A stretch of 63,283 nt of DNA, filler included, from Actinomycetota bacterium (GTDB taxonomy: Bacteria > Actinomycetota > CADDZG01 > JAHWKV01 > JAOPZY01), in assembly GCA_025963875.1 (NCBI GenBank). It is 8 parts of 8 records of this genome, joined end to end, with 100 filler letters (N's around TTAATTAATTAA, not from the genome) between each part and the next. Parts side by side here need not be neighbours in the genome. Positions count along the whole stretch, not along the records: positions 20,541 to 31,692 come from JAOPZY010000266.1; 7 more parts are not named here. One strand, given 5' to 3'. A model generated the notes under the pieces. It was not told the origin of the DNA. It was given only the letters and a program-made list of their open reading frames with translations, and did not search any database. The translations under genes and the position numbers were made by a program. Positions 26,254-31,792 of this stretch are shown piece after piece. Positions within the stretch are counted from its first letter, which is position 1; each line of letters opens with the position of its first letter.

Positions 26254-27714
26254 ATGGAACCGTTGGACGAGCTGGACCCGTTAGCCACGGTCTTCCCCGA
26301 GGAGGACGTTCCTCCGCAGGGGATCTCCCCGCTCGGAGGGTCCCTTGAGACGCGGGCGCCCCGGCACGAGTCGCAACTCCCGGCGCCAAAGGTCCCCTTC
26401 CCGCTCGACCCCATCCTCGCACCGGTCTTCCGTGACTTCGAGCAGTCGGGGGTGCGCTGGTGCCTCCTCGGCCTCCCGGAGAAGGGGCCGGAGGTCGCCG
26501 ACGAGGAGGTCGTCGCCCTCGTCGACCGCTCGGCGCTCACCACCGCACGCCGCGTCCTGAAGGCGAACGGCTTCGCCCCCATCCCCACGTGGGGCCGCGG
26601 CCCGCTGGCCCGCTTCGTCGGCTACAACCCCCAGAGCGACCGCTGGGTGATCCTCGACATCGCAACCCGCCTGACCTACGGCCCCTACGCCGAGTTGGAG
26701 ACCGGCGCCGAAGGGGGTTGCCTGGAGCGGCGGCGCTGGGAGGGGGGCGTCTACGTGCTCGCGGCGGACGACGCCTTCTGGACCCTGCTCCTCCACGTGC
26801 TGCTCGACGACCCCACGCTGCTCGGAGCGCGGCCCCCCGCGTTCGCCAAGACGTTGGAGCGCCTGGCGGTCGAGGCGAGGACGGAAGGCCCCCTCGGCCG
26901 GGTTGTCGCTTCGTTCCTGCCGGAGCGCTGGAGCACGGACGTCCTCGTCGATTGCGTCTGGGACGGGGACTGGGACGCCCTGGAGCGTCTCGCCCCGGTG
27001 CTCGCCGCCGATTGGGCGCGCCGGCAGGAGGGCGCCGCCCGCCGGCGCAACCTCGCCAACCGCACGCTGCGGCGTTTCTCCGCCCGGCGCCTGCTGCCTG
27101 CCCCGAGGGGGCTGTCCGTGGCGCTGCTGGCTCCCGAGCCGGCTGCCAAGGCTGCCCTGGCCGAGGAGTTGGGCCGGACGTTCTACCTCCCGGTGACCTT
27201 CATGCGGATGAGTGCCGCTCCACGCTCGCGCGGCGGCAAACTGACCAGGGCCGGGTTGATCGTGACCCTGGTGACCTTCTGGCTTCGCTACCTCACCGGA
27301 CGCCAGCGGCGAGCGAAGGGCCGGCTCGTGATCTTCGACCGCTACACGTACGACTACCGGCTGCCACCCGCCAGGCCTGCCCGGGCGCTCGGCAAGCTTC
27401 GCCGAGTCCTCCTTGGCCGGGCCTGCCCTGCCCCCGACGTCGTGGTCGTGCTTGACGACCCGACGCCCCCGAAGGTGCGGAAGCTCCGCCCCGACGTCCC
27501 CTACGAGAGCGTCCGGCAGCGCTACCTCGACCTTGCCCAGCGCCTGCCCGATGCCATCGTCGTCGAGGCGCCCGCCTCCCACGAGTCCTCCGACGGGGCG
27601 TCGATGGACACCGAACATCTGCGTCGCGAGATCACCGCTCAGCTGTGGCGGGCCTACGCTGCGGCGCCCCCCACATCGTGGCTGTTGCGACTCGGGGGTC
27701 TGCTCCAGCGCTGA
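26254..27714 (+). CDS. Nucleotidyltransferase-like / thymidylate-kinase-like fusion, degenerate paralog
   Basis: Aligns to 27748-29151 (DDAFWxLLLH, LVIFDR) but the DxD and P-loop motifs are altered. Confidence 0.65.
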   Translation: MEPLDELDPLATVFPEEDVPPQGISPLGGSLETRAPRHESQLPAPKVPFPLDPILAPVFRDFEQSGVRWCLLGLPEKGPEVADEEVVALVDRSALTTARRVLKANGFAPIPTWGRGPLARFVGYNPQSDRWVILDIATRLTYGPYAELETGAEGGCLERRRWEGGVYVLAADDAFWTLLLHVLLDDPTLLGARPPAFAKTLERLAVEARTEGPLGRVVASFLPERWSTDVLVDCVWDGDWDALERLAPVLAADWARRQEGAARRRNLANRTLRRFSARRLLPAPRGLSVALLAPEPAAKAALAEELGRTFYLPVTFMRMSAAPRSRGGKLTRAGLIVTLVTFWLRYLTGRQRRAKGRLVIFDRYTYDYRLPPARPARALGKLRRVLLGRACPAPDVVVVLDDPTPPKVRKLRPDVPYESVRQRYLDLAQRLPDAIVVEAPASHESSDGASMDTEHLRREITAQLWRAYAAAPPTSWLLRLGGLLQR

Positions 27715-27747: not shown

Positions 27748-29151
27748 GTGATGAACGCTGATCCGCCCGTGCCGGTCGAGACCCGGGCCGTCCACCCCTT
27801 GCTGGCCGACGTCTTCGCAGCGCTCGACGCCGCCGAGATCCGGTGGTGCCTCCTCCGGGGCGAGGCGACTCTCGCCGCGCCCAGCGGCGATGTCGACCTG
27901 TTGGTCGATCCCTCCCAGATCCCAGCGATGGAGGCGGCGCTGGCGCCGCTCGCCGTGGTGCCCATCGACAAGTGGGGCGGGGGGGTGCACCGGTCCTTCC
28001 TCGGCTACCACGCCGCGACCGATCAGTGGATCGAGCTCGACGTCGAGCCCGAGCTGGCCTATGGCCCCCACGCCAGTTTCCTCGTGAACTGGATGCTGCC
28101 CAGCCTCCGCACCGGTGTGGCGGCGGGGTGCCTGGCGCGACGCCGCCGGGAGGGCGGCGTCTGGGGCCTCGACCCGGACGATGCGTTCTGGGCCCTCCTG
28201 CTGCACTGCATCGTCGACAAGGGGTCGGTGGCGGAGCGGCACCAGGGCCGCCTCTCCCACCTGGCACCTGTGGCGTCGCCAACGGGGGAGTTCGGCGAGC
28301 TCGTGGGCAGGCATTGCCCGCCCGGATGGGACGCCACCCGGATCATCGAGGCCGCGGCGGCGGGGAGCTGGGACGAGCTTGTTGCGGTCGGGGCGGAGCT
28401 CCCCCGGCAGGCGACTGCGGCGCACCCCCTGGCCACCCGGGCGGAGGGGTTGCTCCGCGGGCTGGGACGGCTGCCGGCAGGGGCGTGGAGGATGCGCCAC
28501 GGTCGGGGGTTCAGCGTCGCGCTCCTGGGGCCGGACGGTGCCGGGAAGTCCACCCTCTCCTCGGGGATCGTCGCCAACTTCGGCCTGCCGGCCAGCCTCG
28601 TCTACATGGGGCTGTGGCAGGGCGAGGAGGGCCAGCGACGCTCCATTCTCCGGGCCGGGCTCGCCGCCGCCAACCGGCCCGTCAAGGTGTGGCGCCGCTA
28701 CCTGAACAGCCGGTACCACCGGGCAAAGGGTGAGCTGGTGATCTTCGACCGCCACGTCTACGACGCCCTCCTCCCGCCCGCGCCCCCGCTCGTGTGGGCG
28801 AAACGTCTCTTCTTCGGGTTCCTTGCCCACTCGGCTCCTGGGCCGCACCTGGTGCTGGTGCTCGACCTGCCGAGTGAGGTGACCATCCAGCGGCGCCCCG
28901 AGGAACGGCCCGACCATCTCGAAGCGCTGCGGGCCCAGTACCGTGCGCTCGCAGAGCGCCTCCACCGGGCGCAGCTCATGTCGGCGGCCGGGACGCCCGA
29001 CGAGATGCGGATCGATGCCACGGATCGCATCTGGCGGGCGTATGCCACCAGGCGCTCGGCCCGAGGCGCCCCTCAAGGCGCCGGATACTCACCCGAGGCA
29101 CCCGTCAAGGCGCCGGATACTCAGCGGGATCCTAGTGCTGCCTCGCATTAA
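27748..29151 (+). CDS. Nucleotidyltransferase-like / thymidylate-kinase-like fusion; last codons altered by the insertion
   Basis: WCLLRG..SGDVDLLV NTase motif; GPDGAGKST P-loop; IFDR; VLVLD. Confidence 0.75.
   Translation: MMNADPPVPVETRAVHPLLADVFAALDAAEIRWCLLRGEATLAAPSGDVDLLVDPSQIPAMEAALAPLAVVPIDKWGGGVHRSFLGYHAATDQWIELDVEPELAYGPHASFLVNWMLPSLRTGVAAGCLARRRREGGVWGLDPDDAFWALLLHCIVDKGSVAERHQGRLSHLAPVASPTGEFGELVGRHCPPGWDATRIIEAAAAGSWDELVAVGAELPRQATAAHPLATRAEGLLRGLGRLPAGAWRMRHGRGFSVALLGPDGAGKSTLSSGIVANFGLPASLVYMGLWQGEEGQRRSILRAGLAAANRPVKVWRRYLNSRYHRAKGELVIFDRHVYDALLPPAPPLVWAKRLFFGFLAHSAPGPHLVLVLDLPSEVTIQRRPEERPDHLEALRAQYRALAERLHRAQLMSAAGTPDEMRIDATDRIWRAYATRRSARGAPQGAGYSPEAPVKAPDTQRDPSAASH
29060..29123 (+). 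repeat. Tandem 32-bp duplication
   Basis: cccgaggcgcccctcaaggcgccggatactca / cccgaggcacccgtcaaggcgccggatactca (30/32). Confidence 0.9.
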
Positions 29152-30682
29152 TAACAGTCAGTTGATTTGGCCTCCACATCTTCGAGATGAGAAGGGTCGC
29201 CTCTCTTTCAAACTTTCTTCGCCGGGCCTGGAAAGGCGGCGTTTTCTGTCGGTACCCGTCGCTATCCTTGCGAACATGTGTTCTGCTAGTTCGGTCCACC
29301 GCACTGCCAGGATCGCCCTGCGGACCACCTCTGCCCAGCGCCGTCGCTGCTACGGCCTGCTGCGCTCCGCCGGGGACGTGTGGGCCTGGGTGATCGACGG
29401 GAACCGCCGGCTCCGGGAGCAGCACCGCCCCGAGGTGGCCAACTTCTCGGCCCTGTGCCGGGAGCTCACGGGCACAAGCTTCGGGGAGCTGTCGCGGCAG
29501 TGCGCCGAGGCGGTCCTGAAGAACTACTCCACTGCCTTCTTCGAGGCTGCCAAGCGCCAGAGGCTGGGTGTACGGGCCGGGTTCCCCCGGCGCAAGCGGG
29601 CACTGGTCCCGGTGCGCTTTCGCAAGGGATGCTTCGCCGTTGACGACTCCCGCGTCCGGCTCAGGGTTTCCAAGGGCGCTCCCGAGCTGTGGGTGCGCCT
29701 CGGCAGGGAGGTCCCCTACCCGGCGGAGAGCATCCGCTCGGTCACCCTCGTCGCCGAGGCTGGACGGCTTTACCTCGATGTCACGGTCGAGGTGGCGGTC
29801 GAGGTGCACGACCTGGATCCCACGAGGACGGCAGGGGTTGACCTCGGCATCATCCATCCCTACGCCGTGGTTGCCGGCGACGAGGGCTTCCTGGTCTCGG
29901 GCCGGGCCATCCGCTCCGAGGAGCGCCTGCACCTCGAGGACACCAAGCGACGGTCCCAGAAGGCGGCGGCAAGGGCTCCGAGCAAGGGACAGAAAGGTAG
30001 TCGCCGATGGCGGCGCCACCGGGCATCCCAGCGCAGAGCCGAGGCCCGTCACCGCCGCAGGGTCCGCCAAGGCCAGCACGAGGCGGCCAAGGGTGTGGTG
30101 TCGTGGCTGGTGGAGCACAGGGTGGGCACCGTGGTCGTCGGCGATCCCAAAGGCATCACCACCCGGGACCGCGGACGACAGCAGAACCTGCGGCTTCGCA
30201 ACTGGCGGCGCACGCATCTCATGGCGTGCCTGAGCAACAAGGCCGAGCTGGCGGGGATCGCCGTGGTGCTCGTGAACGAGCGGGGGACGTCGTCCACCTG
30301 CCCGGAGTGCCGCAAGGCGGTCCCCAAGCCCAAGGGACGCTCCTTCTCCTGCCCTTACTGCGGGCACACGGGCCACCGGGATCTCGTCGGTGCCCGAAAC
30401 ATCGCCGCACGAGGCGGCGGATCCACGCGTGCTCCCGCACGCGTCACGCACCGTCGGGCTGGGACTGTCCCAGCACGGCGTGACCGGCGCCGTCACCTCT
30501 ACGATGAGCGCAGGTCCTGCCCGGCACCGGGCCGCCCGGGGGGACCCGGGAGTCGCTCGCAGGCGAGCCGTCCAGGGGTCGGGTCTCCGGCTCCGGGGAC
30601 GGTTCATACCGTCGACAACGGCACCCTGCGAGGATCGCAGAGATCCGACGCCAACATGCGTGGGACTTATGCGGGGGTGCAT
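29135..30682 (+). mobile_element. Non-autonomous TnpB-encoding element, 1548 bp, with imperfect TIRs and TA duplication in a CTAG site
   Basis: TA at 29133-34 and 30683-84; ends GTGCTGCCTCGCATTAAT / revcomp ATGCACCCCCGCATAAGT; removal restores GGGATCCTAGGTCCC and a coupled operon. Confidence 0.75.
29247..29283 (+). promoter_or_regulatory. RecA-NDp/PafBC-type promoter (TGTCGG-N10-TATCCT) plus LexA box (GAAC-ATGT-GTTC) over the tnpB start
   Basis: TGTCGG 29247-52, TATCCT 29263-68, GAACATGTGTTC 29272-83, ATG 29276. Confidence 0.75.
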
Positions 30683-30685
30683 TAG
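29276..30685 (+). CDS. tnpB: RNA-guided endonuclease TnpB family protein
   Basis: RuvC-I AGVDLGI, RuvC-II VVVGD, zinc ribbon TSSTCPEC...CPYCG, RuvC-III HRDLVGARNI. Confidence 0.92.
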   Translation: MCSASSVHRTARIALRTTSAQRRRCYGLLRSAGDVWAWVIDGNRRLREQHRPEVANFSALCRELTGTSFGELSRQCAEAVLKNYSTAFFEAAKRQRLGVRAGFPRRKRALVPVRFRKGCFAVDDSRVRLRVSKGAPELWVRLGREVPYPAESIRSVTLVAEAGRLYLDVTVEVAVEVHDLDPTRTAGVDLGIIHPYAVVAGDEGFLVSGRAIRSEERLHLEDTKRRSQKAAARAPSKGQKGSRRWRRHRASQRRAEARHRRRVRQGQHEAAKGVVSWLVEHRVGTVVVGDPKGITTRDRGRQQNLRLRNWRRTHLMACLSNKAELAGIAVVLVNERGTSSTCPECRKAVPKPKGRSFSCPYCGHTGHRDLVGARNIAARGGGSTRAPARVTHRRAGTVPARRDRRRHLYDERRSCPAPGRPGGPGSRSQASRPGVGSPAPGTVHTVDNGTLRGSQRSDANMRGTYAGVH

Positions 30686-30690
30686 GTCCC

Positions 30691-31692
30691 GTGCGTAGGG
30701 CTAGCGCTGGCGTCTCGCTCGTCCAGGCCCGCCTCCGGCGAACCCTGGACGGCCGCCGGCGGATGGGCGAGGCCACCGATCTGCTGCCCTCGGTTCTCCG
30801 GGAGATCGTCGCCCAGTCCGGCCTCGAGGAAGCCGCAGGCTGGGTCCTGCAGGCGGCCCACCTCTCCGGCACCCAGGTGGCGGTGCTGATGGTCGGGGCG
30901 CCGGGCGAGCCGGCGGCTGCCGTCGTGAAGATGCCCGCCACACCCGGCGGCGTCGCAAGCCAGCGCCGGGAGGCCGAGGCCCTCGCAGCCCTGAGGGCCG
31001 AGCGGTCGCTGGGAGAGCTGGCGGAGCTGATCCCCGGCCGCTTGGCCGAAGGCGAGCTCGGCGGGATCGCCTACACCGTGGAGCGGGCGGTTCCCGGTGT
31101 CGAGGGCCGCGTGCTGCTCGGCGATCCCTCGATGAGAGACCGGGTCGTGGCGGCGGCGGCTGCTGTCATCGGCCGCTTCCATCAGGCGACGTCGACCCAG
31201 GTGGTGGTCGACGACGAGCTGCTGGAGCGCTGGGTAGGCAGCAGGGTCCGCCTCCTGGCCCCCGCCACCCGCAACGCTGCAGCGCTGGAGCGTCTGGAGC
31301 AGCTCCTCCGCCGGGCCTGGGAGGGCCGGAGCGTGGACGTCGCCTGGGTCCACGGCGACTACTGGCCGGCCAACGTCATCTTCGACAACGACGCTGCCTC
31401 GGCGGACGCTCCGCGGGTGGCAGGCATCATCGACTGGGAGTGGGCAGCCGCCCGGGAGCTCCCGGCCCACGACCTCCTCTACCTGGTGGTCCACATGCGG
31501 ATGCTGGCGGAGGGCAGGGAGCTCGGCCCCGTCGTCCAGTCTTTCCTGACGGGCGAGGCGGGCGTGGCCGTCGACCGGGAGACGCTCCTGTTGGTGTGGC
31601 TGCGCCACGTCGCCTACAACCTGACCCAGTCGCCGGGCGACGCCCGCAACTGGATCTGGACCAGCCGCAACGTCGACACGGTCCTGCGTTCG
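30691..31692 (+). CDS. Aminoglycoside phosphotransferase (APH)-fold kinase, 3'-truncated
   Basis: VVKMP, HGDYWPANV Brenner motif, IIDWE. Confidence 0.85.
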
Positions 31693-31792
31693 NNNNNNNN
31701 NNNNNNNNNNNNNNNNNNNNNNNNNNNNNNNNNNNNTTAATTAATTAANNNNNNNNNNNNNNNNNNNNNNNNNNNNNNNNNNNNNNNNNNNN
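31693..31792. other. Artificial contig linker
   Basis: N-run/TTAATTAATTAA/N-run. Confidence 0.99.

Follow-up and report, generated by a model that had tools for sequence, protein, structure and literature searches.

The window analysed here is a stretch of 63,283 nucleotides from an Actinomycetota bacterium (assembly GCA_025963875.1), and it contains a 1548-bp element whose only gene is tnpB. This element is very probably a non-autonomous member of the IS630 family that is moved in trans and that carries, besides the TnpB nuclease, a 3' guide-RNA region running through its right terminal repeat. TnpB is usually tied to the IS605 and IS607 families, which excise without leaving a scar. Both the ends of the element and its TA signature are of the IS630 type, so that it most likely borrows an IS630 transposase. 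Since the element has no DDE_3 transposase of its own, it is classed as non-autonomous. Its features are listed below with their positions in the window, their strand and the evidence for them. Loci are denoted by L numbers and genomes by G numbers throughout.

29133..29134, no strand: left copy of the duplicated TA, within C-TA-G; read from the sequence, with a single TA retained in empty-allele contigs.
29135..30682, plus strand: the entire non-autonomous element, 1548 bp; bounded by the empty allele and by the limit of homology to other copies.
29135..29152, plus strand: left terminal inverted repeat, GTGCTGCCTCGCATTAAT; 17/21 matches to the IS630 consensus, CTAG included, and supported by L251 and L279.
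29276..30685, plus strand: tnpB open reading frame (ORF), 469 amino acids (aa), with a conserved core of about residues 1-395 and a weakly conserved tail that overlaps the RNA region; from ORF, Pfam, alignment and PDB searches.
30413..30682, start approximate, plus strand: conserved structured region, located at the 3' end of the tnpB core and past it, a putative guide-RNA (omega RNA) scaffold that extends through the right repeat; from alignment and RNAalifold.
30665..30682, minus strand: right terminal inverted repeat, ACTTATGCGGGGGTGCAT (reverse complement ATGCACCCCCGCATAAGT); 15/21 matches to the IS630 consensus, CTAA included.
30683..30684, no strand: right copy of the duplicated TA, which together with G30685 forms the tnpB stop codon; from the sequence, the ORF and the empty allele.

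Boundaries of the element and the empty site

The original prediction described an element flanked by TA on both sides, with imperfect terminal inverted repeats, and the sequence bears this out. GTGCTGCCTCGCATTAAT and ACTTATGCGGGGGTGCAT are complementary at 12 of 18 positions, as counted by eye. Taken alone the two ends are weak and fall outside the 25 longest of the 135 inverted pairs in the window. With up to 3 mismatches allowed, the window contains either 18-mer end a single time, where shuffled sequence is expected to give 0 occurrences, and the weak repeat matches the IS630 consensus at both ends.

Removal of the element and one TA predicts the sequence ...CAGCGGGATCCTAGGTCCCGTGCGTAG, in which the upstream gene ends in QRDPRSRA* and overlaps the GTG at 30691, with the near-palindrome ...GGGATCC-TA-GGTCCC... 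at the site. Contigs of four soil-metagenome runs were placed on positions 28800-31000, and the readings apply to the parts that the contigs cover. The predicted empty allele was recovered there: position 29132 is joined to 30683 in one X5 contig and in one X6 contig, which come from different studies, so that 1550 bases, the element plus one TA, are skipped. The shorter sides of the two joints are 32 and 41 letters long, and 3 letters fit either side. Both joints carry the tool's mark "between: not known"; the X5 contig matches 30683-30869 starting at its letter 35, and hardly any additional letters, if any, could fit in between. Loose contig ends at 29131 and 30685 in the same soil runs place the element at other sites, and one of them carries the right flank of L251. 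By these contig joints the insertion is polymorphic in the soil samples.

Resemblance of the ends to IS630 insertion sequences

An insertion sequence (IS) of 1.55 kb is present in four identical copies in Micromonospora sp. NBC_00898; it has a 398-aa DDE_3 ORF and perfect ends, C-TA-GTGCAGCTCCGCGTTAATCCTTGAGGG (C-TA-GTGCAGCTCCGCGTTAATCC). This ORF serves as the example transposase of the GTGCAGCnCCGCGTTAAT IS630 group. The motif CTAGTGCNGCNNCGCRTTAAT, which covers both the end of this IS and the left end of the window element, is present in at least 125 stretches in genome contigs, nearly all of them from Actinomycetota. When 80 loci with 88 such ends were fetched, an IS630 transposase lay inward of 43 ends, 28 ends had too little sequence, 17 had at least 1.8 kb with neither gene, and none had tnpB. 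Compared with the consensus of 52 distinct IS630 ends, the window element matches at 17 of 21 positions on the left and at 15 of 21 on the right. Closer still to this consensus are metagenomic left ends from the window's subfamily, for example C-TA-GTGCACCGCCTCGTTAATC, with matches at 17 of 19 positions (by eye). These comparisons agree with the original reading of the ends as IS630-type.

The ISs of actinobacteria with ends C-TA-GTGCAGCnCCGCGTTAATCC, of which that of NBC_00898 is an example, resemble the window element in having TA within CTAG at both ends, in their similar size, and in 15-17 matches over the first 21 bases of the repeat. They differ in encoding a DDE_3 transposase and in lacking tnpB, and the likeness ends after about 21 bases. 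The metagenome-assembled genome that holds the closest genomic relatives of the element (L003 and L004) contains one IS630 IS, adjoined by the truncated end of another with GTGCAGCCGCGCGTTAGAG. At L027:100-2760 a complete IS630 IS and a tnpB element lie head to tail with one TA in common, as would follow if a CTAG were formed anew at the junctions of every insertion. The L027 pair sits in a CTAG at the centre of flanks of about 100 bp that are inverted repeats of each other.

Relatives and their target sites

Relatives were sought among species-representative genomes with a protein query, which gave the first 4 loci, and then with a query built from an alignment of 4 sequences; 236 relatives were found and 79 loci fetched. 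Most of them are from Micromonospora, Actinoallomurus and Dactylosporangium, and the best TnpB match in these genomes is 80% identical. At least 41 more loci, which belong to the subfamily of the window element and are at most 88% identical to it, come from metagenome contigs. Among viral contigs there were 27 pattern hits and no relatives. The relatives have tnpB as their single gene, measure about 1.5 kb and combine inverted ends with C-TA flanks. The ends of the window element recur at a different site in L251 (88% aa identity), and the same left end is found at yet another site in L279. One genome, G006, is unpublished; it underlies the L002 ends, the L002 row in alignments A1 and A2, and the L107 IS630 ends, and the main conclusion does not depend on it.

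Actinoallomurus liliacearum contains 11 occurrences of a 19-base end when up to 3 mismatches are allowed, including three pairs 1560-1584 bp apart, and C precedes TAG at all 12 distinct ends (one of them from a looser threshold). The orthologous site is empty in 4 of 4 other Actinoallomurus genomes (flank 96% identical) and reads ...GC-CTAG-TCTTC..., with a single CTAG. The boundaries with TA are thus the same in the window element, in other copies and at empty sites, as the original prediction required.

A first repeat finder gave clean CTAG pairs in 26 of 77 loci and spurious ones in many; most of the others were resolved when the search was repeated with TA as a requirement. Both ends were placed in 57 elements at genome loci, which represent 54 distinct insertions. 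In the 28 elements found by requiring only TA, C precedes the left TA in all 28 and G follows the right TA in 22. The right flank of the other six starts with A, C or T, and there only TA, or CTA with the last C of the element, is repeated. Because only TA is repeated where the right flank has no initial G, TA appears to be the part that is always duplicated.

Several copies are incomplete or otherwise irregular. L003 is frameshifted, and many ends in the family are solitary or truncated. L275 and L285, both from metagenomes, have C-TG in place of C-TA before the left repeat, and their right ends lie off the contig. At L249 (G003:C1:3074183-3074544) a 362-bp pair of Micromonospora-type repeats, C-TA...TA-G, surrounds DNA unrelated to tnpB, either as a short derivative or with another cargo. 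In L035, L045, L048 and L091, from four genomes and two genera, the repeat adjoins the same flank of about 90 nt, ...GGAGCCTCACTG|GTGCGG, with a CTCACTG end and TG for TA; this common flank could represent either a host element present in all four or an insertion that has been conserved.

A solo tnpB gene could also belong to an IS1341-type element of the IS200/IS605 family, moved as single-stranded DNA by a Y1 TnpA transposase. Such an element would insert 3' of a CTAG-like target with TAG as its right end, and the TA duplication would be only apparent. Most solo tnpB genes do belong to IS200/IS605, the empty site with one CTAG is equally compatible with this mode of insertion, and some hosts have Y1_Tnp hits (G001, 1; G002, 6; G004, 5). 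These hits, however, are not next to the tnpB copies, and none is in cis. The complete Dactylosporangium genome G003 has the element and its short derivative but no Y1_Tnp hit, and G005 also has none. The inverted repeats lie at the very tips, are conserved across subfamilies and match real IS630 ends at 15-17 of 21 positions, whereas IS200/IS605 ends are described as asymmetric with subterminal hairpins in the available text of Kojima 2026 (PMC13565253). The repetition of TA alone in 6 of 28 elements also speaks against insertion without duplication. Movement by a Y1 transposase is therefore the least probable of the rival explanations considered here, and its likelihood is very small. The ends are terminal inverted repeats like those of real IS630 ISs rather than subterminal hairpins, and the 1.5-kb unit holds no gene for a Y1 or other transposase. 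Membership of the IS607 family was considered and rejected on the grounds that the element holds only tnpB and has symmetrical ends, a judgement that covers the element itself, as no search for serine recombinases was made elsewhere in the genomes.

The TnpB protein

The ORF at 29276-30685 is the sole long sense ORF of the element, and its product matches the Pfam families OrfB_IS605 (PF01385, 3.5e-12) and Cas12f1-like_TNB (PF07282, 1.3e-18), both above the cut-off. The claim that tnpB is the only gene of the 1548-bp element is therefore upheld. So is the claim that the stop codon uses the duplicated TA, since TAG consists of the right TA and the flanking G. A RuvC triad read as D...D...D and a zinc ribbon had also been proposed. 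The zinc ribbon is present as C342/C345/C359/C362 and is invariant in an alignment of 4 sequences (the window and three relatives); the triad has to be corrected to D-E-D, as the residues invariant in the same alignment are D189, E335 and D369. We take these three to belong to the RuvC motifs, from what is generally known of TnpB.

A sequence search of the PDB gave 19 hits at E<0.01. The best were a Cas12f chain (1.5e-14) and a chain named "RNA-guided DNA endonuclease TnpB" (5e-8), and no chain among the 19 is named Fanzor. By sequence the protein is an ordinary compact TnpB, a nuclease of the RNA-guided OMEGA class, with a core of about 395 residues. It looks active, with the D-E-D residues and the zinc ribbon kept and a putative RNA region present.

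The 3' structured region and the 5' leader

Alignment of 24 right-end regions from all subfamilies reveals conservation that reaches GCAC-TA and then ends, which is the tip of the repeat. RNAalifold predicts 24 pairs, 4 of which have both sides changed, in 10-11 sequences. These compensatory changes follow the subfamily split and may thus represent few events. Rfam has no match for the right-end region at E values up to 1. The 3' region is read as a putative guide-RNA scaffold of which the right repeat forms the last part. Solitary right ends with the RNA region and without tnpB are found at L005 (G001:C16, about 1349-1519), L243 and L247, and are either standalone guide-RNA remnants or deletion products.

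At the other end of the element, a block of about 45 bases immediately upstream of the tnpB ATG (TTTCTGTCGG...GCTATCCTTGCGAACATG; 29230-29278 in the window, and the equivalent in L251-L285) is conserved across subfamilies, and the rest of the left region is not. It could contain a promoter inside the element followed by a leader of very short length, although a sigma-70 scan found none. The promoter and terminator scan returned 0 sites.

Source of the transposase

One difficulty for an IS630-family element moved in trans is that its partner was not found. No IS630 transposase is present in the 63-kb window by tblastn, nor in the flanks of the 41 metagenome loci and of L003 and L004; among the 79 genome loci there is one, which belongs to the separate IS at L027. 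The exact subfamily repeat GTGCAYCNCCTCGTTAATC occurs in 16 stretches in genome contigs, none of them a partner IS. These matches are regarded as chance, as they come from unrelated phyla and are without TA flanks and without tnpB or an IS630 transposase. A. liliacearum has at least 5 copies of the element and no DDE_3 hit in its draft genome. The Micromonospora-type repeat (GTGCGGTGTCCACTAACGTT) and the IS630 ISs of the same genome have only about C-TA-GTG in common. Two further points concern the target. The empty site alone does not separate a TA duplication from insertion beside CTAG without duplication, and in one independent insertion (L003 and several metagenome contigs, all at the same site) CTGAG stands in place of CTAG at both sides, which is unexplained. 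All of these observations weigh against the IS630 reading.

A search for IS630 transposases with the same terminal repeats had been suggested as a check of the original prediction. Neither the window nor the flanks of 120 related loci nor the exact-pattern scan yielded one with identical ends; no copy examined has an IS630 transposase inside it. Because no transposase with identical ends was found, mobilisation in trans is something we infer from the ends themselves. A matching partner IS630 IS would carry the ends GTGCACCnCCTCGTTAATC. As candidate partners for the Micromonospora-type repeat, 7 unpaired repeats of G002 were fetched, and they proved to be tnpB copies or remnants, not transposase-bearing ISs. 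Ends could be located for only 2 of the other DDE_3 loci.

The missing partner raises the possibility that the window copy is now immobile. It would then be a relic without a transposase partner that is kept and spread only by TnpB-guided homing and recombination, or that is drifting to decay or domestication. No partner with identical ends was found in the window, the flanks or the exact pattern, the A. liliacearum copies come without a DDE_3 hit, L003 has its frameshift, and solitary or truncated ends are many, all of which would fit a relic. Yet the window ORF and its catalytic residues are intact, a near-identical element is found at other sites (L251, L279 and the loose contig ends), and the insertion is polymorphic in soil. 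An immobile relic is accordingly unlikely to a marked degree, if the least improbable of the rivals.

The other possibility is a different transposase. The IS427 and IS1031 groups of the IS5 family favour CTAG or CTNAG and duplicate TA or TNA. A DDE transposase of either group could therefore move the element, and the L003 insertion, with C-TGA-G at both sides, is CTNAG-like. Kojima 2026 (PMC13565253) lists, in its available text, TnpBs linked to ISL2 and IS1031. The 3-base form, however, is seen in only 1 independent insertion of about 75 examined, and the ISs that the repeats match encode a transposase with a Pfam DDE_3 hit, which is the IS630 type. Movement by an IS5-family transposase is highly improbable, standing between the relic and the Y1 transposase in this respect. 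Trans mobilisation by an IS630-family transposase is the reading followed below.

Flank asymmetry and left tips

The two flanks of the insertions are not alike, even though CTAG, the target, is palindromic. In 54 Micromonospora-type insertions the left-flank position -4 is G in 42, and the mirrored right position is C in 18. In the window's subfamily the same left position is C at 14 of 15 sites (by eye). The equivalent position at the ends of IS630 ISs has no such bias (G31, C27, A17 and T7 of 82). The left flank, and not the right, thus has a subfamily motif with the duplicated TA as a part of it (GC-TA for Micromonospora-type elements, CC-TA for the window type), and this motif has the appearance of a TnpB target-adjacent motif. 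At the right junction of the element itself the sequence is AC-TA or AT-TA, so that occupied sites would be spared from cutting.

In several elements the bases at the very tip of the left end differ from the repeat and are identical to those that follow the right TA. This extends over 8 bases in L017, 7 in L028, 5 in L093, 5 in L002 and 4 in L036. In 58 elements there are 71 tip positions at which the element's own tips differ, and at 32 of these the left tip has the right-flank base in register. The mirror comparison gave 10 of 71 and two other controls gave 12 and 21; Fisher's test of 32/71 against 10/71 gives p = 9e-5, with the caveat that positions within an element are not independent. 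The count leaves out L035, L048, L049, L088 and L092, in which the finder had chosen an internal TA, and L023. One possible hypothesis for this overwriting of tips is that an empty site was cut on the guide side and then repaired before the invading end had been fully trimmed.

Taken together, a cycle may be proposed for these elements. An IS630-family DDE transposase from elsewhere in the cell would bind the repeats and cut and paste the element into a TA. Transcription of tnpB would start within the element, and the guide RNA would come from the 3' portion of the transcript, which would extend across the right repeat into the flank. TnpB with this RNA would recognise an empty site by the left-flank motif including C-TA (CC-TA in the window subfamily), followed by the right-flank sequence. 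It would cut that site, and repair from an occupied copy would restore the element. A homing mechanism of this kind was reportedly described for IS605 elements by Meers et al. in 2023. That the elements carry natural traces of TnpB-guided homing acting on a bacterial cut-and-paste DDE transposon is a tentative suggestion from the flank motif and the left tips, and one about which we are more doubtful than confident. If true, restoration of IS630-type elements by TnpB would have its first evidence at the sequence level, and the target motif would be predicted.

Host genes around the insertion

The element lies between two genes of the same strand.

27748..29151, plus strand: upstream host gene, 467 aa; its last codons are replaced by the insertion, so that it ends in ...QRDPSAASH* instead of ...QRDPRSRA*.
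30691..31740, plus strand: downstream host gene for an APH-type phosphotransferase; its GTG overlaps the upstream stop in the empty allele.

The sole Pfam hit of the upstream gene is a weak match to Thymidylate_kin, below the cut-off. This gene and the adjacent one at 26254-27714, of 467 and 486 aa respectively, seem by eye to be paralogues. The 3' end of the upstream gene, just ahead of the insertion, consists of two tandem 32-bp copies that are 94% identical (29060-29123). Summed contig depth over 29022-29095 is 20-100 times that of neighbouring bins in all four soil runs, which indicates a short sequence that is widely repeated. At about 31696-31745 there is a masked or N stretch, and ORF translations end there in runs of X.

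Relation to known systems

An association of TnpB with IS630 transposases is already in print, so that the novelty implied by the original prediction was overstated: IS630-linked TnpBs, solo TnpBs with matching ends and a link to Fanzors all appear in the available text of Altae-Tran et al. 2023 (PMC10691335). That text describes a "DDE-6" branch of TnpB associated with IS630 transposases and a helix-turn-helix (HTH) protein, with symmetrical ends, and reports inverted repeats in all six DDE-linked groups. Solo TnpBs are reported there too, with ends almost the same as in elements that bear a transposase, which suggested mobilisation in trans, and a possible link to Fanzors is proposed; the account of DDE-6 is repeated in the accessible part of Kojima 2026 (PMC13565253). 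The concept is therefore not new, and the window element is an unusually clean example of it. In the literature on TnpB with IS630- or mariner-type elements, an actinobacterial solo family, the flank asymmetry and the overwriting of tips were not found described, although the supplements of Altae-Tran et al. may list the clade.

The window element shares with DDE-6, as that branch is presented in the available text, the placement of TnpB within symmetrical IS630-type inverted ends and of the 3' end of tnpB near the end of the transposon. DDE-6 elements differ in having the IS630 transposase and a separate HTH protein in cis, and some are found in giant viruses, whereas those described here are 1.5-kb solo units of Actinomycetota. 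The IS1341 group is similar in its single tnpB, its 3' guide-RNA region (putative here) and its many copies per genome. Its ends, however, are asymmetric hairpins without inverted repeats or duplication according to the same part of Kojima 2026 (PMC13565253), and the window element has inverted repeats and TA on both sides.

Fanzors provide the eukaryotic comparison. The available text of Yoon et al. 2023 (PMC10711439) places Fanzor1 in Tc1/mariner and other cut-and-paste transposons and describes a non-autonomous element with only a Fanzor in an ascovirus. The guide-RNA scaffold of Fanzor transposons includes the repeat and the duplicated bases, and the motif that is recognised includes the duplicated bases on the 5' side, as far as the accessible parts of two sources state (PMC10711439, PMC13565253). 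The window element is similar in that its conserved, predicted RNA region extends through the right repeat and its left-flank motif includes C-TA. It differs in that its protein is a bacterial, compact TnpB.

TnpB in DDE cut-and-paste elements is the bacterial counterpart of the Fanzors in eukaryotic transposons, and has so far only been sketched in a survey paper. The family described here would provide a concrete system for an RNA-guided nuclease that cooperates with a DDE transposase encoded elsewhere. Cultured Micromonospora, Actinoallomurus and Dactylosporangium contain hundreds of copies, the ends are defined, empty sites are known, and there are candidate IS630 partners and a predicted motif. 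Compact TnpBs with a predicted CTA-containing motif are also candidate genome-editing tools.

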